Part shown: piece by piece, positions 35,603 through 64,000 of the stretch
Position numbering within the stretch: the stretch's first letter is position 1
Layout: the number at the start of each line of letters is the position of its first letter
From: Gammaproteobacteria bacterium
Lineage (GTDB): Bacteria > Pseudomonadota > Gammaproteobacteria > G965277405
Reading direction: 5' to 3'
NCBI GenBank assembly: GCA_965277405.1
Contig: OZ255726.1
Coordinates: forward strand, 1,088,001-1,152,000
DNA: 64,000 nt
Program-made: the position numbers and the translations under genes
The notes under the pieces: model-generated
Told to the model about the DNA's origin: nothing
The model's database searches: none
What the model saw: the letters and a program-made list of their open reading frames with translations, nothing else

Positions 35603-36271
35603 CGCATTGGACACGCGCAAGGCGAATTCCTGGCTTTTCTGGATGTCGATGACTGGTGGTTGCCAGAAAAGCTCGAACGCCAGATCAACCTTTTTGACGA
35701 TCCGCAAGTCGGTATGACGTGCAGCAACTATACCATCAAACATGAGGGCAAGGGTGGCCGCGAATGGACAGCGCTCGCAATACCTCTGACAACAGCATGC
35801 AACCTCGATAGCCTGCTGAAGGACTACCCAGTGGGTTTATTAACACTCATGGTACGCACATCAGCACTGGTTTCTGTCGTGCAGCCGTTTGATCCGCGCT
35901 ACCATATTATCGGTGACTTCGATCTTGTGATTCGCCTCGCAACCAGATGGAAACTTGGATATCTGGATGAGCCGGTCGCGGTTTACCGCCTGCATGCCGA
36001 CAATGAAACCGCCAGGCACCGCATGCGTCAAGTTGATGAGTTGCAGCTCTGGCAAAAGGACATGGAACACAAACCAGCCGTGTCCTCCAGTCCAAGTTTT
36101 CACTGGGTCGAGTTCAGAACCGACTACATCGCTGCGATGCACTATCTGCTTGAGGGCGACAAGTTTGCCGCATTCTCGGTCATTCGGCGCATGCCCGTCA
36201 ACCGGCGGTCCCTGCGTTTGTGGATCGGGCTGTTTGCGCCGACCTCGCTGGTCCGCCACTTCAAGAACTAA
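35603..36271 (+). pseudogene. GT2 glycosyltransferase lacking its N-terminus
   Basis: Frame reads IGHAQGEFLAFLDVDDWWLPEKLERQ (DxD motif); the N-terminal GT-A segment and a credible start are absent. Confidence 0.78.
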
Positions 36272-36392
36272 TTCCGTTGCTGAACTGACGAGCGGTTTCA
36301 ATACTAATTTAGCGCAAGTTGTCCTGTTTTGGCGTTTTATGTCTGCTAACCTTTACTGAAATAATGATCTGGTCCTGCTGGGACGCCAACTG

Positions 36393-39540: not shown

Positions 39541-39549
39541 GGTTCCCAG

Positions 39550-40560
39550 ATGTTCTCAGACCGCACATTGATGATTACCGGAGGTACAGGCTCATTCGGC
39601 AACGCCGTAGTGAGCAAGTTTCTTGAAACCGAAATCCGGGAAATACGCATCTTCAGCCGGGATGAGAAGAAGCAGGAGGATATGCGCCTTGCGCTGAACC
39701 ATCCAAAGCTGAAATTCCACATTGGTGATGTTCGCGATTATTCGAGCGTGTTTGATGCCATGCGTGGCGTGGATTTTGTGTTTCACGCCGCAGCGCTGAA
39801 ACAGGTGCCCTCGTGCGAATTTTATCCCATGGAAGCTTTGCGCACCAATGTTCACGGTACGGAAAATGTCATCAATGCCACTATAGCACAGGGTGCTAAA
39901 CGCTTCGTGCTACTGAGCACGGACAAAGCAGTTTACCCCATCAACGCGATGGGCATTTCGAAGGCGATGGCCGAGAAGGTCATGGTCGCGAAATCACGGT
40001 TTCTATCCAATGGTGAAACAGTTCTTTGTGCCACGCGATACGGCAATGTGATGGCTTCCCGTGGGTCGGTCATTCCTCTGTTCGTTGCACAGATCAAGCA
40101 GGGCCTGCCACTGACGATCACCGATCCCGATATGACGAGGTTCCTGATGTCGCTCGATGATTCGGTTGATCTGGTTCTGCACGCGTTTAACAACGCCTCG
40201 CAGGGAGACATTTTCGTCCAGAAAGCACCTGCCTCCACCATCGGTGTACTCGCACAGGCTCTACTAGAGATTTTCGACAGCACTTCGGCACTTGTGGTGA
40301 TCGGTACGCGCCACGGCGAAAAGCTCTATGAATCTCTTTTGTCACGGGAGGAGCTGGTTCGGGCAGACGAGATGGATCGGTATTACAGAGCGCCAATGGA
40401 TGCCCGCGATCTCAACTATAACAAATACTTTGTCGAGGGTGAGCCGAGGCTCTCGGGGTCGGAAGACTATACTTCGCATAACGCGCAGCGGCTGAACCTT
40501 GAGCAGGTCAAGGCGCTCTTGCTGGATCTCGATTACATTCAGGATGCACTTAATGCCTAA
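39550..40560 (+). CDS. fnlA: UDP-GlcNAc 4,6-dehydratase/5-epimerase (FnlA/WbjB/CapE)
   Basis: TGGTGSFG, FSRDEKKQ, HAAALKQVPSCEF, TRYGNVMASRGSVIP, GTRHGEK. Confidence 0.9.
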   Translation: MFSDRTLMITGGTGSFGNAVVSKFLETEIREIRIFSRDEKKQEDMRLALNHPKLKFHIGDVRDYSSVFDAMRGVDFVFHAAALKQVPSCEFYPMEALRTNVHGTENVINATIAQGAKRFVLLSTDKAVYPINAMGISKAMAEKVMVAKSRFLSNGETVLCATRYGNVMASRGSVIPLFVAQIKQGLPLTITDPDMTRFLMSLDDSVDLVLHAFNNASQGDIFVQKAPASTIGVLAQALLEIFDSTSALVVIGTRHGEKLYESLLSREELVRADEMDRYYRAPMDARDLNYNKYFVEGEPRLSGSEDYTSHNAQRLNLEQVKALLLDLDYIQDALNA

Positions 40561-41680
40561 GGTTTTGACCATTGTGGGTACACGCCCTGAGCTGATCAAG
40601 ATGAGCCGGGTGATTGCCGAGCTCGACCGGCAGGTGGATCACGTGCTGGTACATTCTGGGCAGAACTATGACTACGAACTGAATCAAGTATTCTTTGATG
40701 ATTTGAAGATTCGCAAGCCTGACCATTTTCTGAATGTCGCGGCAGAAACTGCCTCGAAGACTATCGCCGATGTTATTGCGAAAACTGATGATATTCTGGC
40801 TCAGGAAAGGCCGGACGCGGTTCTGCTGTACGGTGACACTAATACCTGCCTGGCGGTAATACCAGCGAAGCGGCACAAGATACCGGTATTTCATATGGAA
40901 GCGGGCAACCGCTGCTTTGATCAACGTGTTCCCGAGGAATTGAACCGCAAGGTGGTAGACCATCTCAGCGACATCAATATGGTGCTGACAGAGCATGCGC
41001 GACGCTATCTGATTGCCGAAGGTATCCGGCCAGAGACCATCATCAAGACTGGCTCGCATATGCGGGAAGTGCTCGACTTCTACATGCCGGACATCGATAA
41101 ATCGGATGTGCTCAAGCGTGAAGGGCTGGCTGCAGGAAAATTCTTCGTTGCCAGCATGCACCGCGAAGAAAATGTCGATCCCCTAGATTCGCTGCGCAGC
41201 ATTGTGGCGACCCTCAATATGCTTGCGGGCAGATATGGGTATCCCATTATGATTTCCACACACCCTCGGACCCGCAAGCGGCTGGAGGAAACCGGCCTTC
41301 AATCCAACAATACGCTGCTGCGGTTCATGAAGCCCTTCGGGTTCCTAGACTATGTGAAACTGCAGCTGAACGCCTTGTGCATTCTGTCCGACAGCGGCTC
41401 GATCACGGAGGAGGCATCTATCCTCAATCTTCCAGCAGTGACCCTACGTAACGTGCATGAGCGACCGGAAGGTATGGATGTCGGCACACTGGTCATGTCG
41501 GGGCTTGACACCCAGTCGGTGCTTGACGCTGTCAAACTTGTGATCTCGCAGCATGACAGCAAGAACCGGGTATTCCAGGTTGTCCCAGATTATCTGGCGG
41601 CAGCTGTTTCCAAGCAGGTTGTGAGGCTAGTTCTGAGCTATATTGGTTATGTAAACCGAACCGTGTGGCATGAGCAGTAA
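40553..41680 (+). CDS. UDP-2-acetamido-2,6-dideoxy sugar 2-epimerase (QnlB/FnlC/WbjD type)
   Basis: VGTRPE, GQNYDYEL, HMEAGNRCFD..VPEE.NR, SDSG. Confidence 0.88.
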   Translation: MPKVLTIVGTRPELIKMSRVIAELDRQVDHVLVHSGQNYDYELNQVFFDDLKIRKPDHFLNVAAETASKTIADVIAKTDDILAQERPDAVLLYGDTNTCLAVIPAKRHKIPVFHMEAGNRCFDQRVPEELNRKVVDHLSDINMVLTEHARRYLIAEGIRPETIIKTGSHMREVLDFYMPDIDKSDVLKREGLAAGKFFVASMHREENVDPLDSLRSIVATLNMLAGRYGYPIMISTHPRTRKRLEETGLQSNNTLLRFMKPFGFLDYVKLQLNALCILSDSGSITEEASILNLPAVTLRNVHERPEGMDVGTLVMSGLDTQSVLDAVKLVISQHDSKNRVFQVVPDYLAAAVSKQVVRLVLSYIGYVNRTVWHEQ

Positions 41681-41774
41681 CCGCCCCATGCGCGTGCTTG
41701 TTACCGGAGCCAACGGATTTGTCGGCAAGGCGCTTGCCGACGCGACGGCGAGGTTTTGGTCAGAGCTTCCTTAG
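41670..41774 (+). pseudogene. NAD-dependent epimerase truncated after ~27 codons
   Basis: MRVLVTGANGFVGKAL Rossmann start, then an IS5-like IR and a stop. Confidence 0.8.
41755..41770 (+). mobile_element. Solo IS5/MITE-type right inverted repeat
   Basis: TTTGGTCAGAGCTTCC followed by TTAG; last 11 nt identical to the IS5 IR. Confidence 0.7.
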
Positions 41775-41970
41775 ATCAACGGCGAAAGCTACAGGCTCAA
41801 ACACAGCCGTAAAACCGACTATAACCAGAACAGCTGGACTAACGGCCAGTAGGCGCTTTGGCATGCGTTAGCTATATGGAAAGCACCCACACCAAAGCGT
41901 CGCCTAACCTCAAAACTCAGTGGCTCCTTGTTACGCCGCGATCTGGACCTCTTTTAAGCCAAGATTGACA
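41775..41970 (+). mobile_element. IS21-family right-end remnant (istB 3' end plus IRR)
   Basis: Reads INGESYRLKHSRK (IstB C-terminal GESYR motif); then two TGG-led subterminal repeats ending ...TTGACA. Confidence 0.7.
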
Positions 41971-41992
41971 GCTAGGAACAATACGGTAGAAT
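41965..41992 (+). promoter_or_regulatory. Putative sigma70 promoter for the ABC operon
   Basis: TTGACA-N16-TAGAAT upstream of RBS AGAGGAG and ATG 42024. Confidence 0.6.
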
Positions 41993-42023
41993 CCTGATAA
42001 GCCAATTTAAAAGAGGAGTAAAT

Positions 42024-43046
42024 ATGACTGACTAAAACAAAAACCCGAAGAAACCTGCAAGGCGCGACTTCCTGAAGACCGTAGCGCTAGGATCTGTGGT
42101 GCTGGGTGCCGGAACGTTAGCACCAGAACTCGTGTCAAAAACCGCCAGCGTGGCATATGCCCAAGGTGGTGATAAGTTGAAGATGGCTTTTATCCAGTAT
42201 ATACCGCACACCGTGCCGGCTGCCTGGAGCAAGGGCATTGAAGATGTCCTGAATTCTCAGCCGACGATCGAGTATCAGTTGCTCGACGGTCAGGCTAAAG
42301 CCGAGGTTCAGGCGAGTTTGATGGATTCACTCATTATTAACGGTACCAACGTGATCTTTCTGCAGCCCGTTGATAGCGTGGCTCTGGGTCCGTCAATCGC
42401 TAAGGCGCGGCGCGCGGGAATTCCAGTGATCACACTCAACATTGATGCGCCTGAACTCCATGCTGCGCATGTGGAGATGAGTCACTATCTAGGAGCCAAG
42501 GACATTGCTAAATCGACGGGTGCGGCAATGGGTGGTACTGGTAAGGTGGCAATCCTGAATGCGCCTCCTGGACTGATTATCCGTGATCAGCGTGAAAATG
42601 GCTTTGTCGATGGCATGGTCGAACATCATCCCAGCATACAGATTGTAGCCAATCAGGTTGCCGACTGGTCGCGCAAGAAGGCGCAGGATGTATTCACCAC
42701 GATCCTGGCGGCAAATCCTGATGTGACAGGTGTTTATGGTATCAACGATTCCATGGCCCTTGGTGCCGTAGATGTTGCCAAGCAAAAGGGAATTCTTGAT
42801 AAAATTACCGTCTACGGCAACGATGGTGAGAAAGATGCACTGCAGTCGATTGAAAATGGCGAGCTCACCGGAACACAATATACTGACGTGTATCAGCAAG
42901 GCCGGTATGCAGCAGCCGCTGCCACGGTGCTTGCCAGTGGCGGTGTTTCGGCGCGTGATATCGGTAGACAGGGAGCCCTTTTGATGCCGTACATCATTGC
43001 GACGCTGGATACGGTAGGCCAGATCGGTCCAGCGCAACGCTGGTAG
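42024..43046 (+). pseudogene. Sugar ABC periplasmic binding protein (RbsB-like, Tat signal) with a nonsense codon at codon 4
   Basis: ATG ACT GAC TAA then in frame NKNPKKPARRDFLK continuing into the RbsB-like ORF (ADWSRKKA, GINDSMALGA, GNDG). Confidence 0.8.
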
Positions 43047-43075
43047 GTGTTCAGGTTGTTGTAATGTTACGAACG

Positions 43076-43107
43076 CGGGGCGTGTTTTACCGATAAATCA
43101 CGCCTCG
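43076..43107 (+). terminator. Stem-loop after the binding-protein gene
   Basis: CGGGGCGTG...CACGCCTCG. Confidence 0.45.
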
Positions 43108-43127
43108 GGCTTTGCAGGTTTGGCGCA

Positions 43128-44060
43128 ATGCACTTGATAAACAAAATACCCAACAAGGAACTCCTGTTCCTCTTAGTTGCCGCCGTTGTGATATTTTCGA
43201 TATTTGCAAATCGATTTTTGACGCCCTCGAACTTTGAGAACATTCTTACGGGTTATTCGTTTCTGGCAATTCTTGCCATCGGCCAGGGTCTGACCATCAT
43301 GGTTAGAGGAATTGATCTCAGCATCGGGTCGAACGTTGCTTTGGGGGCGATGGTGCTTTTCGATTTGACGATGATCCTGCAACTTCCAGGATATCAGGCA
43401 ATACCGCTTGCGACCTTGGCTGCCTATCGCGGAGCAGTTTATGCCATTTCGGGGCGGCAACTTTTCCCCGAACTGTCTTCAAAACCCATAACCGACCCAT
43501 GGATTCGTTATCTGGGTGATTTTATCGACCTAGGCGGTCTATTGCGGCTCGACGGTGTTGTGCAACTTCCCTGGATACCAGTTTCCTTTGTTGTGCTTCT
43601 TATCTTTGCCGCTGTCGTCCAGTTTGCGGTGTTTAGCACGCGCTGGGGGCTAAACCTGAGGACACTTGGGGGCAACGCGGAAGCCGCGCATCTTGCCGGT
43701 CTAAACACCAGCCTTCTGGAAATTTCAGCCTATGTTATTTGCGGCCTAGCGGCCGGGCTTGCAGCCGTCATCCTAGTTGGACGCTTCACGACCGCGACGG
43801 AGGCGCTTGGCAGCGGCATGGAACTAACCTCGATTGCTGCGGCCGTGATTGGCGGAACCAGGTTGCACGGTGGTGTAGGCGGGGTGTTCGGCCCGCTAAT
43901 TGGCGCCTTCCTGCTTGGTGTTATTTTGATCGGGTTGACGTTGATGGGCGTTTCGCAATTTATCCAGCAGATTTTGACGGGTACAATACTAATTGCAGCA
44001 GTTTCATATGATCGATTCCTCATTCATCGTTCGAAAAAGCGTGCTGGGGTGACAACATGA
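43128..44060 (+). CDS. Sugar ABC permease (RbsC-like), apparently with an internal in-frame deletion
   Basis: GIDLSIG, GGNAEAAHLAG, ELTSIAAAVIGG; G...G..NG segment missing. Confidence 0.8.
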   Translation: MHLINKIPNKELLFLLVAAVVIFSIFANRFLTPSNFENILTGYSFLAILAIGQGLTIMVRGIDLSIGSNVALGAMVLFDLTMILQLPGYQAIPLATLAAYRGAVYAISGRQLFPELSSKPITDPWIRYLGDFIDLGGLLRLDGVVQLPWIPVSFVVLLIFAAVVQFAVFSTRWGLNLRTLGGNAEAAHLAGLNTSLLEISAYVICGLAAGLAAVILVGRFTTATEALGSGMELTSIAAAVIGGTRLHGGVGGVFGPLIGAFLLGVILIGLTLMGVSQFIQQILTGTILIAAVSYDRFLIHRSKKRAGVTT

Positions 44061-45571
44061 TACCCTTTGCCCTGCAAGCGCTTGCGGTATCGAAGAAATT
44101 TGGCACTTTTGCAGCTCTGCAGCCGCTAGATTTTTCGATTGAGGTGGGGGAGGTGCGCGGACTGGTTGGCAGTAACGGTGCGGGAAAGACCACCTTCATC
44201 AAGGTGCTAACGGGTGCACACCGCCCGACAACTGGCACGATTTTGGTGGACGGGCACGAACTGCCGGACAATTCGACCGCTGCGCATCTGCACGCTGGTA
44301 TCGCATGCATCTATCAGCATTCCAGTCTGGCACCAAATCTGACAGTTCTTGACAACCTGTATTTAGGACGTCATCCATGCGGTATCCTTGGCATAATCAA
44401 TAGACAAAAATTGCGAGCGGATGGCCTTGCGCTTCTTACCGGTCATGGAGTGGATGTTGAGCCCGACGTGCTCGTTGAGACCTTGCCCACGGTCAAACAG
44501 AAACAAATCGAAATCCTCAAGGCCTTGGCACAAAATGCCAAAATAATCCTGATGGACGAACCGACAGCGTGGCTGTCACATGCGGAGGTAAAGCGGCTCC
44601 ACGAAACTATTGCCAGACTGCAAGCGCGCGGCATCGCTATTGTCTATATTTCCCATATGATAAACGAAATTTTTCAGGTCTGTGACAGTGTGTCGGTCCT
44701 GCGCGATGGAACACATGTTTGGACCGGCGCGGTCTCTAGTACGGATCGCCCTGAGTTGATACAGCATATGCTTGGTGAATCAGCTAGCAAACTCACCGGT
44801 CATTCCAGACCTCAGGACAGGGCAAAGCGTAACTCCGGTGCGGTGAAATTGTCCAGCAAGGGGCTTTGCCGTGCCGGGTATTTTTTTGATGTCAACTTCG
44901 ATCTGCATGCTGGTGAAATTTTGTGTGTTACCGGACTGATCGGAGCCAAGCGCACCGAACTTGTGCGTTGTCTATTCGGCGCAGACCGACCGGACAAGGG
45001 AACAATCGAGATCGACGGTGCACCGGTGCAAATCAGTTCACCCAGACAGGCAATGAACCTGGGCATCGGTTTCGTTCCCGAGGATCGTCACCGAGATGGC
45101 CTTTTTTTGACGCATTCAATCCGCGAAAACCTGGTTCTTGCCGCGCTTTCCAAGCTCAGCGATGGGCTGTTGATGAGGAGCCGTGTGTTTCGTGATGTAG
45201 CTGCACGCCAGGTCAAAAAGCTAAACATCGTACCGACCGATCCAGAACGGGTGGTCGGCTGGCTCAGTGGTGGCAACCAGCAGAAAATCCTGCTCGGCAA
45301 ATGGCTTGAAACCAATCCGTCGATCATCATTCTTGATGAGCCGACGGTCGGCGTCGATGTCGGCGCCAAGGCTGAAATCTACGCAATTCTTGATGAATTG
45401 AAGCGCCGTGGCGCGGCTGTTTTGGTTGTTTCGTCGGACATTGAGGAAGTTCAAGCGATTGCCGACAGAATTGCGGTGATGGCGGATGGGTGTCTTGGCA
45501 AGTGCTTTGAGGCATCGAGTGTTACACATGCGGAATTGATAGGCTTGATCAGCGGAAATGCGACCGCATGA
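44057..45571 (+). CDS. Sugar ABC ATP-binding protein (RbsA-like, two NBDs)
   Basis: GSNGAGKT, MDEPT, VPEDR, LSGGNQQK, LDEPT.GVDVGAK. Confidence 0.92.
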   Translation: MIPFALQALAVSKKFGTFAALQPLDFSIEVGEVRGLVGSNGAGKTTFIKVLTGAHRPTTGTILVDGHELPDNSTAAHLHAGIACIYQHSSLAPNLTVLDNLYLGRHPCGILGIINRQKLRADGLALLTGHGVDVEPDVLVETLPTVKQKQIEILKALAQNAKIILMDEPTAWLSHAEVKRLHETIARLQARGIAIVYISHMINEIFQVCDSVSVLRDGTHVWTGAVSSTDRPELIQHMLGESASKLTGHSRPQDRAKRNSGAVKLSSKGLCRAGYFFDVNFDLHAGEILCVTGLIGAKRTELVRCLFGADRPDKGTIEIDGAPVQISSPRQAMNLGIGFVPEDRHRDGLFLTHSIRENLVLAALSKLSDGLLMRSRVFRDVAARQVKKLNIVPTDPERVVGWLSGGNQQKILLGKWLETNPSIIILDEPTVGVDVGAKAEIYAILDELKRRGAAVLVVSSDIEEVQAIADRIAVMADGCLGKCFEASSVTHAELIGLISGNATA

Positions 45572-46497
45572 GCACTTTTGCGGACAAATTTTCCAGCCTT
45601 GCATTGCCTATTGCGGTTGTAGTAACCGCTCTTGTGTTTGGACTGGTTGAGCCAGCCTTTTTGTCGTCGGGAAACCTGACGGGCATCGTGCATCGTATGG
45701 CGACCATTGGCATTATGGCAGTTGGCATGACGTTTGTGATCATGACAGGCGGCATTGACCTTGCGGTCGGTCCTGTTATGGCGCTCGCCGGGCTTGCGTC
45801 GTATTTCTCACTTCAGGTCGGCATTCCCCTGCCATTGTCAATCGTGGTCGGCGTGTTGAGCGGTGCGGTTGTCGGTGCAATCAATGGCACAGCAATAGCG
45901 TTTTTCAGGTTGCCTGCGATAATTGTGACCCTTGGCATGTTGTCGATCGTGCGTGGCGTGGCGCTGACGATCGGCGGACCGACCCTCCACCAGATCAGCG
46001 ACCAACCTGCGTACACATTCATAGGTACAGGGTCGTTTTGCGGCCTTCCGGTTTCGGTGTTGATTTTTGCATTGCTGGCTTTGATTGCAGTGCTGGTCCA
46101 GAAATACACCATCTACGGCCTTCAGATTTCGACCCTTGGTGACAATGAAAGAGCGTCGGAACTGTCCGGTCGCCCCACCCGATTGCTGAAATTGTCAACA
46201 TATGTTGTGTGTGGAGTGACTGCAGCAATTGCGGGTATTATCGAGAGCTCACAAGTTTACACCGCGTCGGCGAACTTTGGTGAGTTTGGCACTGAACTCG
46301 ATGTGATTTCAGCCGTCATACTTGGCGGGGCAAGCATGTTTGGCGGAAAGGAGTATGTATGGAACACAGTGCTGGGTGTCCTATTTCTGGGTGTGATCAA
46401 TAGCGGGCTGAACATTTTGAACATTCCCGTGGATGTTCAGCTAATGGTCAAGGGCGCTATAATTGTTTTGGCGATCAGCGTTTCTTTGCATAAGTAA
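45568..46497 (+). CDS. Sugar ABC permease (RbsC-like)
   Basis: GGIDLAVG, GAINGTAI, IIVTLG, ELDVISAVILGG. Confidence 0.9.
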   Translation: MSTFADKFSSLALPIAVVVTALVFGLVEPAFLSSGNLTGIVHRMATIGIMAVGMTFVIMTGGIDLAVGPVMALAGLASYFSLQVGIPLPLSIVVGVLSGAVVGAINGTAIAFFRLPAIIVTLGMLSIVRGVALTIGGPTLHQISDQPAYTFIGTGSFCGLPVSVLIFALLALIAVLVQKYTIYGLQISTLGDNERASELSGRPTRLLKLSTYVVCGVTAAIAGIIESSQVYTASANFGEFGTELDVISAVILGGASMFGGKEYVWNTVLGVLFLGVINSGLNILNIPVDVQLMVKGAIIVLAISVSLHK

Positions 46498-46739
46498 CGG
46501 GAGGCTAGCATAGTGAGGTCCTGTCGATATAGTGCAGCCCTCAAATGTTCTGGCATTGTGGGTTATGCAACACTCAAATCTTCGAGGTGATACCAATGCA
46601 GAATTCCGACAGTTGTCTGGCTTGGAAAAAGATGCAAGACCATCGCATTAACATATTTTTTCATAGAAAATATCTGCATTCCTCATTACTCAGAAAATCA
46701 TCGTATGCGGAGTATCAGCAGGTCACAATCTTAGTTTTA

Positions 46740-49062: not shown

Positions 49063-49146
49063 GCCCGGATGGTGGAATTGGTAGACACTCAAGACTTAAA
49101 ATCTTGTGGACGTAAGTCCGTGCCGGTTCGAGTCCGGCTCTGGGTA
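49063..49146 (+). tRNA. tRNA-Leu(TAA)
   Basis: GCCCGGATGGTGGAATTGGTAGACAC, anticodon arm CAAGA-CTTAAAA-TCTTG, long variable arm, GGTTCGAGTCC; followed by TCA. Confidence 0.95.
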
Positions 49147-55858: not shown

Positions 55859-57190
55859 TTATGCTCCTATAGTAAAACCATGAATCAGTATTGAACCTGT
55901 ATGGATGGAGCTACGAGTGTCGATATCATTACCATGTGCTTGGATGCCCGCAAAGATATCAATCAAATTTGCAGCCAAGGTGATCTCTTCGACAGCATGC
56001 GTGATTTTCCCTGCGGAAATCCATTTGCCACTCGCGCCAAAAGAAATATCACCAGTGAGCGTGTTGGCACCTTGACCCATGATATCCGTACATAAAAAAC
56101 CTGTGTGACATTGCTCCACGAGGGCGTCGAAGTTTGTTATGTGGTCACTTTCAATTGAAATAACACCAATATAACCGCCGTTACCAGTTGGTTTGGTGTT
56201 GCATTTGCGTGCATACACGATGTTAAATAAAAACTGTTTGAGGATGCCGTTTTCAATAATAGTTTTGTCTTGCGTGGCGATGCCATCTTGATCGTACCAT
56301 GCGCTCCCGCTGATGCCACGCTGGTGGCATTGTTCGTGAACCTGTAGCCATGGTGGAAATATTTGTTTGCCAATTTTATCGATTAAAAAACTAGATTGTT
56401 TGAATAGATGTTTGCCATGACAGGCGCTCAGTAGTTGCCGCCAAACCATCTGTGCTACATCAGCATGCAGCAGCACAGGGTATGTGCCAGATGTTATTGT
56501 ATGCGGTTGCAGTTTATCTAGCGCCTTATGCGCCGCATTGGTTGCGATAGCACTGCTGAATGGCATTTTAGTAACGTCGTGGTGCGTCACATAGTCGTAG
56601 GCAATTTGCTTTTTACCCGCGCTTGCAGCAATAACTGCACAAGAGGCTGAATATTGTGTTTGTTGCGTTTGTTGTGCCCAGCCGTGGCTGTTAAAAATCA
56701 TTGTGGACTCGTTAGACTGGCTAAATGTACATTGCTCAACGCTAATACGATTATCGACGTTTGTAGCTGTACGTTCTAGTTGATTGCAGTAATCAATAGC
56801 TTGTGATGTAGACAAAGACGCAGGGTGATACAAGTCAAAGGAATTGTTGTGTATATCACGTTGTTTGGCTAAATACGTAAGTTCAGGTAACGCATAGTGG
56901 TGGTCTGCTTGGTTAAGTTCGGCTTGGCGGATGGTTTGCAGCAACAACGAATGCAGCGTATCAGCATCAATTTGATTGCTGTGTGAAACACTATGTCGAC
57001 CATCACTAATAACCGTAACCGCAACAGCATATTCGTCAAAATCTTCCAGCTGTTCCAGTTGCAGATTTCTGGTTTCAATGTTTGTTCCACATTCATGGGA
57101 AATCACGATTTGGCATTGAACACCATGTTCATTGGCAAGAGCGATAGTTTTCTCTGAGTTACTAATGATAGTTGCAATAGTATGATGCAT
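55859..57190 (-). CDS. pmbA: PmbA/TldE metalloprotease subunit
   Basis: SSFL...G..IFP, D.DG, TGNGG, MGQG.N..TGD.S.GA.G, EITLA.NL. Confidence 0.88.
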   Translation of the reverse strand: MHHTIATIISNSEKTIALANEHGVQCQIVISHECGTNIETRNLQLEQLEDFDEYAVAVTVISDGRHSVSHSNQIDADTLHSLLLQTIRQAELNQADHHYALPELTYLAKQRDIHNNSFDLYHPASLSTSQAIDYCNQLERTATNVDNRISVEQCTFSQSNESTMIFNSHGWAQQTQQTQYSASCAVIAASAGKKQIAYDYVTHHDVTKMPFSSAIATNAAHKALDKLQPHTITSGTYPVLLHADVAQMVWRQLLSACHGKHLFKQSSFLIDKIGKQIFPPWLQVHEQCHQRGISGSAWYDQDGIATQDKTIIENGILKQFLFNIVYARKCNTKPTGNGGYIGVISIESDHITNFDALVEQCHTGFLCTDIMGQGANTLTGDISFGASGKWISAGKITHAVEEITLAANLIDIFAGIQAHGNDIDTRSSIHTGSILIHGFTIGA

Positions 57191-57522
57191 GGTGATTTGC
57201 GAAGTCTAGTGGGGAAATAAGTTTGCGGATAAATTGTACTGATTGTAAGGTGAATTCACAAGCAGGTATTGGGCTGCGTTGTTTGCAACTAAACAACCTT
57301 CACGTTTACTACTCCTAACAACCGCTGTAACCCATTGTAATTTATTTATAAATAGGATATAAAAGAGAGTAAGAGTTGCGCTATGGACGAATTGGCAATT
57401 ATATGTTACTCAGCAACTGCCAATAAATAACATAATAATGTAACTATCGCATTACTAAATATAACAAGACGATAACTATATATACGACCATCGCATTTTA
57501 GGACCACTACGAATCTTGTTTC

Positions 57523-58227
57523 ATGCGACTAAACTATAAATTTCAACATGCCGTGCTGCATGGCATAGCTGATAAATTACGTAATGTTCGACTGTTTGCT
57601 ATAATAAGCGCAGGTTTTTTGGGATTGGTTTCAGGTTGTTCATTGCTTGGTCTTGCTGATGGTGCGGAAAATACGACGCCTGCTGACTCGTTGGCTCAAT
57701 TATTAGGTAATCAGCTCGGCCAACAAAAAACCAATCAACGGGTTTCAGCTGCTTCTATATATGGTGAGAAAGGCATTATTTTATATGATCCTTTAGGGAA
57801 TGGTACGGATTTCGTGTTGGACCCATCTGGGCGGATTGTGAAATCTGATTTAGACGCGGCAGAAACAGGATTAGAAATTAACGATTTGGAACGACGTTTT
57901 TTTCGTTCCAACAAGCATCTGATTGATGCCGAAAGTTTATTTTATTCTGGTTTGTACGAAGAAGCACTCAACGAAACAAAAGCATCAATTGAGCTTACTC
58001 CGCGTTCAGCAAAAGCTTATGCAATAAAAGGTTCATTGGAATATAAGCTTGGGCGGCTAGAGCGTGCTAGAGCAGCTTGGATGGTTGCATTAAAGCTTGA
58101 CCCAAAGATGAAAAGCGTGTCACGCGCCCTCTATTTAACTTCTATTCCTGATGCAAATCAAAGAATAGCTGCAACAAGTGGCAGCACGGATAGCGCAGTA
58201 GTAGTTGGTGGGGGCACAGAACAGTAA
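57523..58227 (+). CDS. TPR-repeat lipoprotein
   Basis: Lipobox VSGC; TPR pairs AESLFYSGLYEEAL...LTP / AYAIKGSLEYKLG...ALKLDP. Confidence 0.75.
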   Translation: MRLNYKFQHAVLHGIADKLRNVRLFAIISAGFLGLVSGCSLLGLADGAENTTPADSLAQLLGNQLGQQKTNQRVSAASIYGEKGIILYDPLGNGTDFVLDPSGRIVKSDLDAAETGLEINDLERRFFRSNKHLIDAESLFYSGLYEEALNETKASIELTPRSAKAYAIKGSLEYKLGRLERARAAWMVALKLDPKMKSVSRALYLTSIPDANQRIAATSGSTDSAVVVGGGTEQ

Positions 58228-58332
58228 TAATAATGAAAAATAATATTGCAGAGCATCCGTACATCTTATTCGGAAAGAGTCCGTGAATCTCATGCTTGAT
58301 CAACTCCGTTTTTTATTATGGGCTGTAATATA

Positions 58333-60330
58333 ATGCCTCAAAATATACTGGCAATATTCATTGGCGTAGTGGTAATGCTCTCAGGTCAAGCATGGGCTGT
58401 AATTATTGATGTGGAAAATCCAGCTGTTGACGAGGTGTTTTTTGAAAAAGAAATGGAAAGCAGGCTTTCTCGTGATATTCAAGCATATCTTGGACATGAT
58501 AGGTTTATTTTAGGTATTGATTTTAAGCTTTCTTCGTTTGCAGGCTTCGGGAGGCAAGGTAGCGATGCTGGTGATAGCGATGCTGGTGATAGAGTGGTTG
58601 TTCGTGAAATAACAACGTCATTGCCTGGTTTACCTGGTGCAGAAGTAAAATTTCAAAAAGAATTAACGGGTGAAGATATTAATAATTTGCGGGAAAATCT
58701 GCGCTTAGATGAAAGCTCGCTGGGGTCTAGAAGTCCGCTAAGCTCTGTGCTACAGCCAAGCACACAAAGTGCTAATGCGCTTGCAGGAACTGGAACTGAA
58801 GTGTTTCTTGTGTTAGATACTACGGTGACAACGGCGCAGGAAAACTTTATCCGCGATGTAATGTCTAGAAAGTTGAGTATAGATCTAAACAAAGGTGATA
58901 GTATTCAAATCGTTCGATCTACTTTTGAACGTGAAAGTAATAGTTCAAATACGAGCAATCAACAGCCTAATCAATTTGGAGAAAATCCTGCGCAGCAACC
59001 GCCATTATCTGGAAATCAAGTCCCCGTTGCAGGTGCAGGCGCACCAACTACTGACTCGGGAAATGTAAGTGATTCAGTAACTGATCCAACTTTGTTGCAA
59101 AAAATCAATGAACTTGAACAGGGGTTGAAGAAAGATTTTATTGAGAAAAATTTAGTTTGGATTTTACTCGGTGGCTTTGGTTTTTTATTGTTTTTTAGTC
59201 TGATATTGTTTTTGGCATCACGCAAACCGGCGCAATCAATGATGCCAGCGTATCCGCCGATGGCGCCGCCGCAAAGTCCTAGAACAGGCGCTAGTAATGC
59301 CGAAAAAAATAATGTTGATCAAATTGAGATTGAGGGAATGCGTCATCGTGCGGTAGTGGCAGAAACTAAACGTGAGATTGCAGCGATAGGTTTAGCATCG
59401 CCCAATATTGTAAAACAAGAAATGAACAATCTGTGGGCACAAAACCGCATGGATACGATTGCTGCTGTATATACTGGTCTTGGAAATTCAATTTATGAGT
59501 CATTGTTTGGTGGACTGTCTGCATCTCAATCTTCAGAAATTAGTGCGTATTTATCAGAACGTGAAATCACATCGACACAATTAGAGGCACAAGTTAAAGA
59601 TTTTTATTCTCGATCATTACGTGCTGCGAACGACCCTGATGGTAAGCATAAGTCGCATTCATTTGCATTCTTAAATAAAATGAGAATAGGGTCGCTGCAA
59701 TTCTTGTTAAAAAATGAAAAACCACGGGTCAAAGCCTTGGTTATTTCACAGCTTGAAAATGAAAAGGCAACGACTGTATTAAATAGTTTTGAGGATAAAG
59801 ATCGAAGTAAAGTTGTTCATGAATTAGCTCAATTTGAAGACTTTCCGTATGAGACATTTAATGAAGTTGCGCAATTATTGGTTAGAAAAGCTAAAAAAAT
59901 TCCTGCTGTTAATAATGTTGGGGCAAATGGTATAAATATTTTAATTAATTTATTGGATAATATGGATAGCAGTGATGAAAGTCGCTTAATTGAAGAATTG
60001 CAAAATATGGATCCTGAGTTACACGATAAGCTTAAAACATTGTATTTTACTTTTAATGATCTAAGTAAAGCGCCGCTGCGTGTTATGGGTGAAGCGCTAC
60101 TAGAAGTTGATAAAAGCACTATCGCTATAGCGTTAATGCAAGCATCTGATGTTATTAGAAAACGTGTTTTAAGCAGTATGCCTAAGCGTGTTTCCCAGAC
60201 TATTGAGGTTGAAATAAAAGAAATACAAGACACTATTAAAAACGAACAGATTCAGTCTGCTCGAAAAGTGTTGTTACGCAGTATGCGTGCTTTAGTACGC
60301 AATGGTAAAATTGATATGAGTAAAATCTAA
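58333..60330 (+). CDS. FliF-like ring domain-TM-FliG(M/C) fusion protein
   Basis: Signal peptide (AWA), KGDSIQIVRSTF (FliF C-terminal ring motif), TM at ~59152-59217, EKPR (EHPQ-like), YFTFNDL (MFxF-like), FliG torque helix SMPKRVSQTIEVEI. Confidence 0.8.
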   Translation: MPQNILAIFIGVVVMLSGQAWAVIIDVENPAVDEVFFEKEMESRLSRDIQAYLGHDRFILGIDFKLSSFAGFGRQGSDAGDSDAGDRVVVREITTSLPGLPGAEVKFQKELTGEDINNLRENLRLDESSLGSRSPLSSVLQPSTQSANALAGTGTEVFLVLDTTVTTAQENFIRDVMSRKLSIDLNKGDSIQIVRSTFERESNSSNTSNQQPNQFGENPAQQPPLSGNQVPVAGAGAPTTDSGNVSDSVTDPTLLQKINELEQGLKKDFIEKNLVWILLGGFGFLLFFSLILFLASRKPAQSMMPAYPPMAPPQSPRTGASNAEKNNVDQIEIEGMRHRAVVAETKREIAAIGLASPNIVKQEMNNLWAQNRMDTIAAVYTGLGNSIYESLFGGLSASQSSEISAYLSEREITSTQLEAQVKDFYSRSLRAANDPDGKHKSHSFAFLNKMRIGSLQFLLKNEKPRVKALVISQLENEKATTVLNSFEDKDRSKVVHELAQFEDFPYETFNEVAQLLVRKAKKIPAVNNVGANGINILINLLDNMDSSDESRLIEELQNMDPELHDKLKTLYFTFNDLSKAPLRVMGEALLEVDKSTIAIALMQASDVIRKRVLSSMPKRVSQTIEVEIKEIQDTIKNEQIQSARKVLLRSMRALVRNGKIDMSKI

Positions 60331-60341
60331 GACTATTTTGC

Positions 60342-61133
60342 ATGCCATCCTTCGGAACAATTGGTGGCTTTATAGCAGGGATTGTACTGTTCACAACTGC
60401 TGTTAGCCAAGCCACTGATGATTATATTATATTCCTAAGCGTCCCCAGCGTACTTTTAGTCGTTGGCGGTACGATTTCCGCAACATTTTTAAGTTTTGAG
60501 GTTAGGGATATTTTTAGTGCGTTTTTTGGTATGTTTTTTTTGTTTTTTAAGAAAAATAATGAGAAAGGTTTTAGAAAAGATATAAAGATGCTATTAGATT
60601 TTGCTAAAATACAACGAACAGAAGGAATGCTGCAAATTGAAATGCAACTTACAAGAACGCAACGTAAAGATGTTTTTATTAGCTTTGCTGTTGATTTACT
60701 ATTGAGTAATTATCGTCCGGCTGAGATACGGTCAATGTTAACGGATATGGTATTAGCAAATTTTGATAAAGGTAACCTCAAGGCCTCTGTCATGCGTACA
60801 ATGGGTGCGTATTCGCCTGCTTTTGGAATGATAGGTACGTTAATTGGTCTTATTATTATTCTCAGTGGATTCGGTGGAGATATATCACAACTAGGCGCTG
60901 GGCTTTCACTGGCGCTTATTTCCACCTTATATGGCGTTTTATTAGCCAATTTCACGTATTATCCTGCCGCAGAAAAATTCGCTAGAAATACTGATTTGCA
61001 ACATTTTCGTGAAAAAATTTTATTAGAAGGCTTTGTGTTGATTGCTGCAAGAAAAGGAGCGTTGGCTATACAGGATAAATTAAATAGCTTGTTAACGCCT
61101 GAATTACGCTACAAAATTAACAGTAGTCAATAA
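60342..61133 (+). CDS. motA: MotA/PomA-family stator A subunit
   Basis: PS.L.V.GGT, QRTEGMLQIE, PAFGMIGTLIGL, ALISTLYGVLLAN...P. Confidence 0.9.
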   Translation: MPSFGTIGGFIAGIVLFTTAVSQATDDYIIFLSVPSVLLVVGGTISATFLSFEVRDIFSAFFGMFFLFFKKNNEKGFRKDIKMLLDFAKIQRTEGMLQIEMQLTRTQRKDVFISFAVDLLLSNYRPAEIRSMLTDMVLANFDKGNLKASVMRTMGAYSPAFGMIGTLIGLIIILSGFGGDISQLGAGLSLALISTLYGVLLANFTYYPAAEKFARNTDLQHFREKILLEGFVLIAARKGALAIQDKLNSLLTPELRYKINSSQ

Positions 61134-61136
61134 GTC

Positions 61137-61835
61137 ATGGATGTGTATCCAGAAGGGGGGGTAGCTACAAGACTACAATCAAACAGCAGTGGAAAAGATG
61201 CTAGGAGGAATGAGCCTTGGCTGTTAACGTATTCAGACACGATTACTTTGCTTTTTACTTTTGTGCTGATAATTTTAAAAATTTCTTCTATTGATGTGAA
61301 TAAGGCAGAAGAATTACGTGAAGGTTTATCTCAAACATTTTTAAAAAAAGATATTTCAACTGCATTTCAATCATTTTCAAAAGAAATTGAGCAAGTAACA
61401 AACATTAATCATGATTTACAGGTTGATATCACCAGTAGATACGTGACTATAGAGTTGACAAACTCAAGTATATACGATGTTGGTAGCGCTGATATTGTGA
61501 ATAAAGAGATTAAAACTATACAGTCAGTAGTTGATATTCTAATACAAGACCCATACGCAAGGTATACATTAGAAGTTGAAGGACATACTGATGATGTTCC
61601 AATTAAAAACTTGGAGTTTCAGTCCAATTGGGAACTTTCAACTGCTCGAGCAACAAACATTGTTAGATATTTAGAAGAAAATGGTGTAAGTAGAGAACGG
61701 ATGAAAGCAATTGGATACGCAGATTCTAAACCATTGCCTGAGACCTTGGATATTAATGGCAATATTGTTCCTGAAAAAAGACCGTTAAATCGTAGAATTT
61801 CAATCCGTATTTCACGCTATAAAATTAATGACTAA
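61137..61835 (+). CDS. motB: MotB/PomB-family stator B subunit
   Basis: WLLTYSDTITLL with conserved Asp; OmpA domain EGHTDDVPI, SNWELSTARA, GYADSKP, NRR. Confidence 0.9.
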   Translation: MDVYPEGGVATRLQSNSSGKDARRNEPWLLTYSDTITLLFTFVLIILKISSIDVNKAEELREGLSQTFLKKDISTAFQSFSKEIEQVTNINHDLQVDITSRYVTIELTNSSIYDVGSADIVNKEIKTIQSVVDILIQDPYARYTLEVEGHTDDVPIKNLEFQSNWELSTARATNIVRYLEENGVSRERMKAIGYADSKPLPETLDINGNIVPEKRPLNRRISIRISRYKIND

Positions 61836-62784
61836 AAGAGTTCATCATCAACAAATACAATCACTACTAAACGCTTTACAAAATAATATTGTTGGACAAA
61901 AAAAACTATTAGAAAGATTGATCATTGGATTATTATCTGATGGACATATATTAGTTGAAGGCGCGCCAGGGTTAGCAAAATCGCTAACTGTTGCAACATT
62001 AGCAAAGCTTATAAACTGTGATTTTCAGCGTATTCAATTTACTCCAGATTTACTCCCCAGCGATATTACAGGGAGTGAAATCTACAAGCCGCAAACTCAA
62101 GCATTTAGCTACCAAAAAGGGCCAATATTTAGTAATTTAGTGTTAGCTGATGAAATTAATAGAGCACCAGCAAAGGTTCAATCAGCCCTGCTTGAAGCAA
62201 TGTCTGAACGCCAAGTAACCATCGGCAATACAACGTATACGTTACCAGCTTTATTTCAGGTCATGGCAACTCAAAATCCCATTGAACACGAAGGTACGTT
62301 CCAACTGCCAGAAGCACAGCTTGATAGGTTTATTATGTATGTGGCAATTGATTATCCTTCTATAGATGAAGAGTTAATGATTATGCGACTTAATCAAAAA
62401 AAGGCGGTTGAGATCACACCAGTTATTGACATTACAACTATTTTGCAAGCACGTGAGGAAGTCCGTGAGATGTATATTCACGAAAGATTATTAATGTATA
62501 TTGCAGAAGTTGTCCATGCTACGCGTACCCAAAAAAACAGAACAAGTGGCAATCAAGGCTATATAGAAATAGGTGCAGGACCAAGAGCAAGTATTGCGTT
62601 AGCAACACTGTCACGTTCTCTTGCATATCTAAGAGGTCAAGACGAGGTCACTCCAGATATTATCCAAGAGCTGTGTTATGACGTGCTCGCCCATCGAATC
62701 ATTTTAAATTTTAGCTCAGAAAACACAGTTCAACAAAAATACCAAATAATTGACGAGGTACTGAGTAGCGTGAAAATTGTATAG
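61828..62784 (+). CDS. moxR: MoxR-family AAA+ ATPase
   Basis: GAPGLAKS, RIQFTPDLLPSD, LADEINRAPAKVQSALLEAM, ATQNPIE.EGT..LPEAQLDRF. Confidence 0.95.
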   Translation: MTKRVHHQQIQSLLNALQNNIVGQKKLLERLIIGLLSDGHILVEGAPGLAKSLTVATLAKLINCDFQRIQFTPDLLPSDITGSEIYKPQTQAFSYQKGPIFSNLVLADEINRAPAKVQSALLEAMSERQVTIGNTTYTLPALFQVMATQNPIEHEGTFQLPEAQLDRFIMYVAIDYPSIDEELMIMRLNQKKAVEITPVIDITTILQAREEVREMYIHERLLMYIAEVVHATRTQKNRTSGNQGYIEIGAGPRASIALATLSRSLAYLRGQDEVTPDIIQELCYDVLAHRIILNFSSENTVQQKYQIIDEVLSSVKIV

Positions 62785-63582
62785 ATGTTTCAAGTTTTAG
62801 AAAAGCTGTCAACAGGGTGGTTAATAAATTCCGAATATATCCAAGCAGCGTATGCGTATCAGCGCAAGGTCAGTAAAAGTAGGCTACATCATACTTATGG
62901 TGCCAGCAGATTAACAAAAAAAGGAAAAGGTTCTGATTTTGATCATTTAAGGGAGTTCACTAGCAGTGATGATATTCGACATATTGCATGGAAAGCTTCG
63001 TTACGATCACAAAAAACATATACAAAAGTATTTTCTGATGAGATTGAAGATAAGATAAAAATTTATGTGATGTTGAATGCCGAGTTGTCATTTGCTATAA
63101 AAAAAAGATCTGCAGCATTTGCTTTATATATAGCACTCCACAGCGCTGTAGAAACATGTTATAAAAAAAATATGCAATGTGAAATTTTGCTTATTCATGG
63201 CAACAATGTCATCGAGAGAGCCAAAATACGTATGCAGAAAGAAATTATCAGAACACTTAGTAGCCTTGCTAAGAAAATCAACGCTGCAATGTGTAAGTAT
63301 AAAACTGGTGATTTATTTAAAATGGATGATATAAAGATTACTCCGCATTCAATTGTTCTTACAGGTGCGCGTAATATACAGCATTACGGATTAGATAGCA
63401 GCACCCTACTGGGCAGCACACTACTGGTAGTAGATGAAGAACCATTGCAACGAATAAGAATTATTGCCCAAACAAATTCTGGTGTGAAACAGGTTAATGT
63501 CGGCGCAAATGCCATAGACTGCGCCATCGTTGCAGATGACACTGTCGAAGATATCTATGCAAAAGTGCAAAGCTGTATATGA
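62785..63582 (+). CDS. DUF58-family protein (divergent)
   Basis: G.GSDFDHLREF..SDDIRHIAWKAS; follows moxR. Confidence 0.82.
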   Translation: MFQVLEKLSTGWLINSEYIQAAYAYQRKVSKSRLHHTYGASRLTKKGKGSDFDHLREFTSSDDIRHIAWKASLRSQKTYTKVFSDEIEDKIKIYVMLNAELSFAIKKRSAAFALYIALHSAVETCYKKNMQCEILLIHGNNVIERAKIRMQKEIIRTLSSLAKKINAAMCKYKTGDLFKMDDIKITPHSIVLTGARNIQHYGLDSSTLLGSTLLVVDEEPLQRIRIIAQTNSGVKQVNVGANAIDCAIVADDTVEDIYAKVQSCI

Positions 63583-63992
63583 AAGATGTTCATCAACCAT
63601 ATAATTTATATCTTTATTTAAATATTACTTGGATTGCTATTGCAATTGTTTTCATGGTATTTCTTATAATAAGTTATATATATTTACAACGATATCTAGC
63701 AAATAGAAAAATACAGCAAACTATACGTAGGTTGCAAGATATAGAGAGCGATGAGGTTTTTGCATTAAACATTGTGCAAGCCATCAAGCATTCAATGGAT
63801 GAACATGGGATACAAAGCAATATGCTCCATGGCGAACGCTTGTATAAAACCTTGCTTAAACATTACAAATACAAGGCAACCATCACATTAAGAGACTTTT
63901 TAATATCAACATACAAAGAACAAAAAATGATTCAGAGACATTTAGTTCTAAAAGAAATTGAGTTACTAATAAAAAGCAATGTTAGCAATTGA
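63579..63992 (+). CDS. Small single-TM protein (DUF4381-like slot of MoxR/Bat operons)
   Basis: MKDVHQP start, one TM, LHGE motif; position after DUF58. Confidence 0.55.
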   Translation: MKDVHQPYNLYLYLNITWIAIAIVFMVFLIISYIYLQRYLANRKIQQTIRRLQDIESDEVFALNIVQAIKHSMDEHGIQSNMLHGERLYKTLLKHYKYKATITLRDFLISTYKEQKMIQRHLVLKEIELLIKSNVSN

Positions 63993-64000
63993 TTGGCCGC

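Follow-up and report, generated by a model that had tools for sequence, protein, structure and literature searches.

The DNA described here, called the window, is a 64,000-nucleotide stretch of contig OZ255726.1 from the assembly GCA_965277405.1 of a Gammaproteobacteria bacterium. Near its end lies a single open reading frame (ORF) whose product joins a FliF-like membrane segment to a FliG-like segment in one chain. Position 58333 of this frame is Met6, an alternative start, and the database copy of the protein (P0001) has 665 amino acids (aa). The fusion gene stands between a gene for a tetratricopeptide repeat (TPR) lipoprotein and genes for two stator subunits of the MotA/PomA and MotB types (Table 1). 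FliF and FliG are textbook components of the flagellum: FliF templates the export gate and the rod, and FliG is part of the switch complex with FliM and FliN. Here, a gene under selection keeps only the ring-building, membrane-crossing and stator-meeting parts, in an organism without the other flagellar genes searched for.

The translation of the fusion begins with a hydrophobic stretch, ILAIFIGVVVML, followed by SGQAWA (residues 11-27 together), and a hydrophobic N-terminal segment of the same kind opens all 17 homologues examined. It then holds EMESRLSRDIQAYLG, EVFLVLD, FIRDVMSRKLSIDLNKGDSIQIVRSTF and a linker rich in Ser, Asn, Gln and Pro, the length of which (residues 204-278) differs between homologues. 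A Pro-rich stretch, PAYPPMAPPQSPR, comes after the transmembrane (TM) helix, and LKNEKPRVKALVISQL and YFTFNDL are found in the FliG part. A preliminary description made from the sequence had listed a signal ending in GQAWA, a split ring-building motif (RBM), a linker, one TM helix, a Pro-rich region, FliG_M and FliG_C, all of which are present in the translation.

Table 1. Segments of the fusion gene and neighboring genes in the window. pLDDT, predicted local distance difference test.
Feature	Coordinates	Strand	Basis
FliF(RBM3-TM2-tail)::FliG fusion ORF, 670 aa	58318..60330	+	ORF list, Pfam, hhalign, model
Signal-peptide-like N-terminus, residues 1-27 (...SGQAWA)	58318..58398	+	sequence: 12-residue h-region, then A-x-A
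RBM3a-like helix and strand, residues 35-72	58420..58533	+	helix 35-58, strand 63-70, pLDDT 92-96; hhalign onto E. coli FliF 237-267
Insert at the FliF beta-collar position, residues 73-156, near-invariant LPGLP at 102-106	58534..58785	+	model, hhalign, conservation
RBM3b-like strand-helix-strand, residues 157-203, ending in KGDSIQIVRSTF	58786..58926	+	pLDDT 93-97; hhalign, Foldseek
Low-complexity periplasmic linker and pre-membrane helix, residues 204-278	58927..59151	+	pLDDT <50 over 209-252
Predicted TM helix, residues 279-301, equivalent to FliF TM2	59152..59220	+	model and hhalign; SRK after the helix (positive-inside)
Pro-rich linker and FliF-type C-terminal tail, residues 302-374	59221..59439	+	hhalign to FliF 549/552; helices 330-360 and 362-374 in the model
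FliG_N-like domain, residues 375-445	59440..59652	+	hhalign from window 374 = FliG 3; pLDDT 87-98
FliG_M domain with EHPQ changed to EKPR, residues 446-530	59653..59907	+	Pfam; alignment to E. coli FliG and PDB FliGs
FliG_C domain with torque helix, residues 538-666	59929..60315	+	Pfam, PDB search, alignment, Foldseek
TPR lipoprotein, 234 aa	57523..58227	+	TPR_2, TPR_11; lipobox LVSG-C; ends 90 nt upstream of the fusion
MotA/PomA-type stator A subunit, 263 aa	60342..61133	+	MotA_ExbB 1.1e-18
MotB-type stator B subunit, 232 aa, with plug and OmpA-like domain	61137..61835	+	MotB_plug 4.8e-11, OmpA 2.2e-15
MoxR AAA+, DUF58 and DUF4381 genes	61828..63992	+	overlap or abut the stator genes

The C-terminal half of the protein belongs to FliG. 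Pfam places FliG_M (PF14841) at residues 460-529 (1.5e-13, 51.2 bits; cut-off 25) and FliG_C (PF01706) at residues 559-666 (2e-19, 70.2 bits; cut-off 23.3). MgtE_N, which the preliminary description had considered as a possible sole match for this region, scores 19.1 bits and falls below its cut-off, as does FliG_N (PF14842), placed at residues 472-562. Aquifex FliG (3hjl_A) was matched in a sequence search of the PDB at 2.7e-21, with query residues 458-667 on chain residues 119-327, along with other FliG chains and the engineered Vibrio FliF-FliG fusion 8z4d. A family profile of 74 rows was built from the window protein and 73 relatives picked by eye as apparently full-length; the other listed matches were left out. 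When compared with a canonical FliG profile by hhalign (99.7%, E 2.7e-26), window residues 374-668 align to E. coli FliG 3-324. The FliF-like part ends exactly where the FliG-like part starts, and the FliG part is complete (N, M and C domains). The helical region noted earlier ahead of FliG_M is therefore present, but it consists of the FliF C-terminal tail and FliG_N.

The EHPQ(R) motif and R160 of FliG are its contacts to FliM. The change to EKPR, already noted in the preliminary description, holds against E. coli, Aquifex and Thermotoga FliG, and the position of E. coli R160 is a Glu in the window protein. None of 13 family members retains the His of EHPQ, and one retains R160. The torque-helix residues K264, R281, D288, D289 and R297 of E. 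coli FliG correspond to M, R, V, E and K in the window protein. The R281 equivalent is Arg or Lys in 12 of the 13 members, the D289 equivalent is acidic in 7, the window included, and an MFxF-like YFTF motif is kept. Rotor and stator are paired through R90-D289 and E98-R281 (PMC7564593). At the level of sequence, the FliM-binding motif is lost and the putative stator-rotor contact residues are retained.

The N-terminal half was compared with FliF through a profile of E. coli FliF and five FliFs from carrier genomes. By hhalign (97.0%, E 9.1e-11, 250 columns), the 74-member profile places window residues 41-374 on E. coli FliF 237-549 (of 552). The alignment takes in, one after another, the first helix and its strand, an insert, the strand-helix-strand unit, the TM helix and the tail. 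Within the insert, LPGLPGA stands opposite GVPGALSNQ of FliF, and L102, P103 and G104 are each conserved in at least 90% of the 74 sequences. At the end of RBM3b, KGDSIQIVRSTF stands opposite RGDSLNVVNSPF, and in the tail, SPNIVKQEMNNLWA stands opposite DPRVVALVIRQWIN. The limits of Salmonella FliF are 228-270 for RBM3a, 271-381 for the collar, 382-438 for RBM3b and 455-475 for TM2 (PMC11739650); read against these limits, the aligned FliF range makes the window half RBM3 onward. Ile252, Ile256 and Val390 of Salmonella FliF are S-ring interface residues (PMC11739650); the helical register of the present alignment is uncertain.

Other searches bear on the same assignment. Across the 74 family members, Pfam finds FliG_C and FliG_M in all 74 and YscJ_FliF_C (PF08345) in 20, with a best E of 7.1e-8. 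PF08345 is also matched at 26.2 bits (cut-off 23.8) within the 639-aa frame of a paralogue in Bermanella sp. R86531, and in a plain tblastn search E. coli FliF 233-443 matches the homologue in G541, a more divergent carrier genome, at 4.9e-5. PF01514, which covers RBM1/RBM2 and is SctJ-like, has no match on the fusion protein or anywhere in its genome, and the hhalign match to FliF starts at residue 237. The preliminary description had already remarked that the protein seems too short to hold TM1, RBM1 and RBM2 of FliF.

Structure models were made with AlphaFold. The periplasmic part alone was modelled from the 14 rows of a narrow N-terminal profile, which was derived from DNA references cut at the TM helix; its mean pLDDT is 56.6, and its alpha-beta ... 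beta-alpha-beta core reaches 70-86. The full-length model from 74 rows has a mean pLDDT of 79.3, with 92-97 in the RBM core and mostly more than 90 in the FliG part. Its elements are helix 35-58, strand 63-70, strand 159-167, helix 172-186, strand 195-201, the TM helix at 279-301 and the tail helices at 330-374. The insert contains a hairpin of strands 95-101 and 109-115 at pLDDT 56-67, and the remainder is disordered.

Comparison of the N-terminal model with 48,161 chains by VIA-align placed a FliF chain, 8z5v_A, at the top (Z 11.3, 95 residues aligned, root-mean-square deviation (rmsd) 3.2, model 4-177), followed by the FliF chains 6scn_A (Salmonella FliF 230-438; Z 10.8) and 8z4d (Z 10.2). 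PrgK and EscJ come after these at 8.8, SpoIIIAG at 8.1 and PrgK domain 2 at 8.0, and unrelated folds reach 7.9. Only the FliF rows stand clear, because by VIA-align's own note Z values of 7-8 are common background. Nine of the ten best Foldseek rows for the same model are FliF entries, namely eight FliF rings (probability 0.96-1.00, rmsd 1.7-3.1 Å over 45-49 columns) and one FliF-YlxF integrative model (0.84), and over the RBM3b-like unit the FliF RBM3 matches have an rmsd of 1.5-3.1 Å over 44-51 columns. With the full model, Foldseek found FliG 8wiw_3 at 1.3e-11 (313 columns; chain of 310 residues), the FliF rings 7bk0_B at 1.5e-3 and 8z5v_A at 5.9e-3, and SpoIIIAG at 4.7e-2. A predicted complex of four copies of the RBM3 domain (residues 1-182 of the 14-row alignment) scored 0.22 against a mark of 0.42, with controls not run, and weighs on neither side as to ring formation. 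The N-terminal domain is RBM-like, as the preliminary description had proposed, and specifically resembles RBM3 of FliF. Taken together, alignments and models support an N-terminal half composed of an RBM3 S-ring domain split by an insert, followed by TM2 and a FliG-binding-type tail.

Relatives of the fusion were found in several collections. A word-indexed protein search returned 12 proteins including P0001, in two groups of 44-50% and about 33% full-length identity. Scanning genomes gave 18 loci in records titled Bermanella, Oceaniserpentilla, Thalassolituus and Saccharospirillaceae and in metagenome-assembled genomes titled Gammaproteobacteria bacterium, Pseudomonadales bacterium and Crocinitomicaceae. 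A metagenome scan added 26 loci, with one locus (L020) alone in the close group. The Crocinitomicaceae-titled genome (L008) was dropped as a Bacteroidota reference, since it holds a canonical FliF and a Bermanella-type locus. Among 1.84 billion representatives, a profile search found 159 proteins at E <= 1e-30. The architecture was surveyed in 148 of the 150 matches listed, P0001 and P0012 being left out. In this set, 129 representatives are at least 500 aa long (median 617), of which 125 carry an internal hydrophobic segment with its first residue at 90-360. Before that segment, [LIVM]PG[LIVMF] occurs in 115, [RK]GD in 108 and both in 100. About 125 further 50%-identity clusters with the same architecture are found among the matches listed. 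The names recorded for family members are only 'hypothetical protein [Bacteroidota bacterium]' and 'flagellar motor switch protein FliG'. Look-alike clusters in the Atlas (57-247 members) come from Balneolota, Pseudomonadota, Bdellovibrionota, Bacteroidota and Elusimicrobiota, and in two of them YscJ_FliF_C is found on 22-55% of members; both observations are leads only.

The family is patchy in its distribution. The N-terminal profile matched none of 40 class-level relatives and none of 400 further genomes sampled from the phylum. In those 400 genomes, the full-length profile gave FliG-sized matches only (profile positions 297 onward), with the N-terminal half uncovered. In the order of one Bermanella-group carrier, G041, the fusion occurs in 3 of 151 genomes, G041 counted. 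One genome with a weak N-terminal profile match, G526, was rejected as a carrier because the match is an ordinary FliF-like gene. Open frames of 883-975 aa in G013, G057 and G420 (L091-L093) were rejected as full-length natural fusions because a stop codon lies between fliF and fliG. These are canonical loci in which fliF and fliG share a frame with one stop and 0-1 codon between them, and a single change could join them.

Purifying selection acts on the fusion family. For the five closest pairs, the ratio of nonsynonymous to synonymous differences (pN/pS) is 0.10-0.15 over the whole protein, while the RBM core has 0.01-0.12 and FliG_M/C has 0.02-0.06, with synonymous sites near saturation. 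Uninterrupted ORFs of 638-688 aa are found in 16 of 17 homologous loci, and the remaining one (L013) is a 639-aa open frame with a non-ATG start. Logan contigs from two runs span window positions 57400-62000 with zero differences; the runs come from one study, which is possibly the window's own source. A 771-nt contig from a third run (58869-59639) bridges the FliF/FliG junction, also without differences. The preliminary description had asked whether the fusion might be produced by assembly; the same architecture is found in many independent contigs, comprising the 18 genome loci and the 26 metagenome loci. A decaying remnant of a flagellar cluster, or an artefact of assembly or annotation that joined two genes, would suit a region that is AT-richer (35-40% GC) than most of the window and a family rare enough to be missing from all 400 other sampled genomes of the phylum. 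It is nonetheless barely credible, and is already contradicted by the intact ORFs, the low pN/pS, the layout shared by 125 of the 148 further representatives and the junction covered in contigs of three runs.

The fusion gene belongs to a compact module. In the window, 11 nt separate the fusion from motA and 3 nt separate motA from motB, and motB overlaps the MoxR-DUF58-DUF4381 genes by 8 nt. The best NCBIfam matches of the MotA protein are MotP and PomA, below the equivalog cut-offs, whereas the MotB_plug and OmpA matches of the MotB protein exceed their Pfam cut-offs. The equivalents of MotA R90, E98, P173 and P222 are kept in six of six family MotA proteins, and MotB D32 is kept in both MotB proteins compared. 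By tblastn with the window proteins, MotA and MotB lie downstream of the fusion in all 18 genome loci and a TPR homologue lies directly upstream in 17; the exception starts 180 nt before the match. Among the 26 metagenome loci, MotA is found in 18 and the TPR gene in 22, and every miss is a contig that ends first. For the 17 upstream ORFs with a recovered N-terminus, 14 fit the lipobox pattern and 3 have QGC or NAC by eye; the ORF of L017 is truncated. Clustering of ORFs from 19 flanked loci and the window places TPR, fusion, MotA and MotB in 20 of 20. An Atlas search with the TPR lipoprotein gave generic small TPR clusters only. A scan for promoters and terminators was at chance: 23 sites resembled promoters where 25.2 were expected, and 4 resembled terminators where 4.7 were expected.

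Genes on either side of these four vary. In the Bermanella group, the TPR gene is immediately preceded on its own strand by a 379-aa gene (L005:8185-9324 and homologues; also L095:7667-8665 in G541) with a weak match to FlgO (E 7.2e-4, 19.8 bits, below cut-off). All five genes (FlgO-like, TPR, fusion, MotA and MotB) are thereby shared with G541. The FlgO-like gene was not found in the window genome with a Bermanella-group query; in the Bermanella clade it may supply the module with a fifth component, at the outer membrane. The genes downstream in the Bermanella group are housekeeping genes (CTP synthase, enolase, DivIC/septum-formation-initiator, IspD-, YgbB- and TruD-family genes). MoxR and DUF58 genes are common only to the window and L020 (10568-13876), where DUF4381 and a VWA gene come after. 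None of the 18 Bermanella-group loci compared has the MoxR, DUF58 or DUF4381 genes, which may therefore not belong to the core module. This run of genes is a Bat-like operon.

The continuation of the stator genes into the MoxR-DUF58-DUF4381(-VWA) operon in the window and L020 would fit a static role for the fusion. The protein would then be a membrane scaffold that docks and activates MotA/MotB through FliG_C, and stator movement or ion flux, in place of ring rotation, would be passed to the TPR lipoprotein or to the MoxR/DUF58/VWA proteins, as by a Tol-Pal or TonB energizer. No axial or output part needing rotation is encoded nearby, only two of the five torque-helix charges are kept, and other 5:2 motors (ExbBD, TolQR) act on non-rotating partners (PMC12505986). 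Such a scaffold is rather unlikely, however, because no part of the protein is more strongly constrained than the ring-building RBM3 core and a complete FliG (N-M-C) is retained with the FliF tail. Moreover, the stator is of the flagellar type, with a plug, an OmpA-like domain and the R90/E98 equivalents, and none of the 18 Bermanella-group loci compared contains the MoxR genes.

The window genome is a single 2.17-Mb contig and is 98.3% complete. Its only FliG_C match is the fusion gene. YscJ_FliF (PF01514), FHIPEP, Flagellin_N and FliMN_C have 0 matches in it, and each of these models was matched in four flagellated control genomes. The preliminary description had suggested a ring built without export apparatus or switch; the absence of the export apparatus and the switch extends to the whole genome, and the ring is proposed from homology. 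Six places in the genome match MotA_ExbB, one of which is the MotA of the module. The other five (L049-L051, L053 and L054 in G000:C1) presumably belong to Tol and Exb systems. Five Bermanella-group genomes were searched, and all five carry a canonical fliF-fliG pair as well as the fusion; G442 has a canonical fliF too. Together with the weak FlgO match upstream of the module in that group, this would be expected if the fusion served a true flagellum as an accessory or as a second rotor, for instance as a factor in assembly or in an alternative basal body, and the window organism kept it after losing its flagellum. Such a history is very unlikely. The window genome is without other flagellar genes of the five families searched, yet its fusion is intact and the family is under purifying selection. 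In G041, the module lies at 3.085 Mb, far from the flagellar genes at 3.017 Mb, and the module always brings its own stator and has lost the FliM-binding motif.

The base composition of the window is uneven. GC content is 35-41% over the module and the MoxR genes (56000-64000), compared with 43-48% in most of the window. The low GC content and the patchy distribution of the family hint at horizontal acquisition. A separate block of 52-54% GC on the plus strand (36000-46500) carries two glycosyltransferases, RmlD-like and CapD-like dehydratases/epimerases and a UDP-GlcNAc 2-epimerase, and then a sugar-type ABC transporter (binding protein, two permeases and ATPase). This block looks like a surface-polysaccharide island of foreign composition. 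Rfam finds two tRNA genes only in the window, at 30743-30815 and 49063-49146, the second about 2.5 kb past the high-GC block.

On this evidence, the window protein is an end-to-end fusion of the type FliF(ΔTM1-RBM1-RBM2)::complete FliG, in which the C-terminal three-fifths of FliF, with a shortened collar insert, is joined to FliG, and it is probably a bitopic inner-membrane rotor turned by its own MotA/MotB. Ring formation, rotation and output are proposed here from homology. A Sec-type signal sequence would stand in place of TM1, RBM1 and RBM2 of FliF and the RBM3 domains would be exported. On the periplasmic side of the inner membrane these domains would assemble by themselves into a ring like the S-ring, with one covalently attached FliG per subunit on the cytoplasmic face. 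Flagellar FliF self-assembles into a ring of about 33-34 subunits. In Salmonella, the RBM3 fragment of FliF is sufficient to form the S-ring and collar, whereas the export gate is enclosed by the ring of RBM2 domains (PMC11739650). Rings are also assembled by full-length FliF-FliG fusions (PMC6079021, PMC11481574). A peptidoglycan-anchored MotA5B2 stator, with ion flow through the MotB Asp, would push the torque helix of FliG_C, and the ring would turn in one direction. Switching would not occur because there is no FliM or FliN. An export gate and a rod would be missing because RBM1, RBM2 and FlhA are absent, and work would therefore be delivered in the periplasm, most likely from the LPGLP hairpin of the insert to the TPR lipoprotein. 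That lipoprotein is the one candidate for the output that is conserved. Under the enterobacterial +2 rule, the residue after the lipid-modified Cys sorts lipoproteins, and those without Asp at this position go to the outer membrane. The TPR lipoprotein is probably anchored in the outer membrane because its +2 residue is Ser, not Asp. It is quite possible, if short of probable, that the whole works as a rotary motor in its own right, turning one way only and lacking export gate, rod, switch and filament, which either derives from the flagellar motor core or is its sister, with its torque passed through the TPR lipoprotein at the periplasm or outer membrane.

Several results weigh against a rotor with its own stator. 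Pfam run on the window protein alone finds no match over residues 1-450, and 54 of the 74 family members miss PF08345 at E <= 0.01. The 14-row profile reaches only 9.5% (E 0.0034) against FliF, with its second half alone aligned, and Foldseek on the N-terminal model gives no match at E <= 0.001 (best 4.9e-3). The insert has 84 residues, compared with 111 in the Salmonella collar, and is modelled at pLDDT 42-71; because it is shorter and its model is of low confidence, a beta-barrel collar, which in FliF houses the rod, is unproven. The FliG equivalog TIGR00207 scores 86.8 against a cut-off of 226.7. As for the five classical charges of the torque helix, conservation fails at the equivalents of K264 and R297, and the window protein has Val in place of D288. 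In the canonical motor the FliG ring is assembled jointly with FliM and FliN, both of which are absent from the window genome. The stator subunits miss their equivalog cut-offs (MotP 128.6 vs 394, MotD 147.4 vs 283). Finally, the gene context comes from the window, one close relative and the Bermanella group (45 loci), which are related gammaproteobacterial lineages and not independent.

There is a substantial chance that the module is a new kind of envelope machine. If it rotates, the fusion would be a natural minimal rotor and a simple object for the study of torque without switch, rod or export apparatus. The module would then be an envelope machine driven by the proton motive force that is not yet described, and it would bear on the order in which the rotor-stator and secretion modules joined in flagellar evolution. 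By the Atlas leads, this new class of bacterial envelope machine would extend across several phyla, with a rotor-stator pair independent of type III secretion. The question is directly testable because cultured carriers exist (Bermanella sp. R86531 and Oceaniserpentilla sp. 4NH20-0058, per their record titles).

No description of this architecture or module was found in the literature covered, which includes the available text of PMC12505986, PMC13277936, PMC4768692 and PMC11739650; subscription journals and supplements lay outside its scope. Flagellar FliF (Salmonella, E. coli, Vibrio) resembles the N-terminal half in its RBM3, split as alpha-beta ... beta-alpha-beta, in an insert at the collar position, in an end of the form R/KGD..v.v....F, and in the TM helix and the FliG-binding-type tail helix that follow. 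Unlike FliF, the fusion has no TM1, RBM1 or RBM2, begins with a signal-like N-terminus and is joined to FliG; its 84-residue insert carries LPGLP, whereas that of FliF has 111 residues and carries VPGALSNQP. The RBM1/RBM2 regions of FliF surround the export gate (PMC11739650). Like flagellar FliG, the fusion has all three domains, YFTF and the R281/D289 equivalents, and a flagellar-type stator adjoins it. It differs in lacking EHPQ and R160, in having no FliM/FliN in its genome, in its covalent membrane anchor and in scoring far below the equivalog cut-off.

MotA/ExbB-family motors with a dedicated envelope partner outside the flagellum are known from ExbBD-TonB, TolQR-TolA, AglRQS, GldLM and ZorAB (PMC12505986). 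The window stator differs from these non-flagellar 5:2 motors in having a plug, an OmpA-like domain and the R90/E98 equivalents, and its partner is a FliG-bearing ring-motif protein, not a rod of the TonB or TolA kind. In its available text, a survey of MotAB and its non-flagellar relatives names FliG solely as the flagellar rotor (PMC12505986).

FliF joined head-to-tail to FliG in one chain is known from laboratory fusions (Salmonella; Vibrio FliFG, PDB 8z4d/8z4g). Those are engineered or selected, contain the whole of FliF and work inside a complete flagellum, whereas the window fusion is natural, lacks RBM1/RBM2 and occurs without a flagellum. Among natural proteins already described, the nearest is a shorter and different fusion, the FliF-FliG protein of Chlamydiaceae (Bergeron 2016, PMC4768692). 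That protein has about 330 aa, with an RBM2-like part, no SpoIIIAG-like RBM3 and a FliG_M-like region only; it is discussed with the injectisome, and the available text describes no dedicated MotA/MotB (PMC4768692). Like the window protein, it is natural, comes from an organism not thought to be flagellated and has a shortened periplasmic region. Its composition is the reverse, since the window protein has RBM3 only, a full FliG, 670 aa and a stator of its own.

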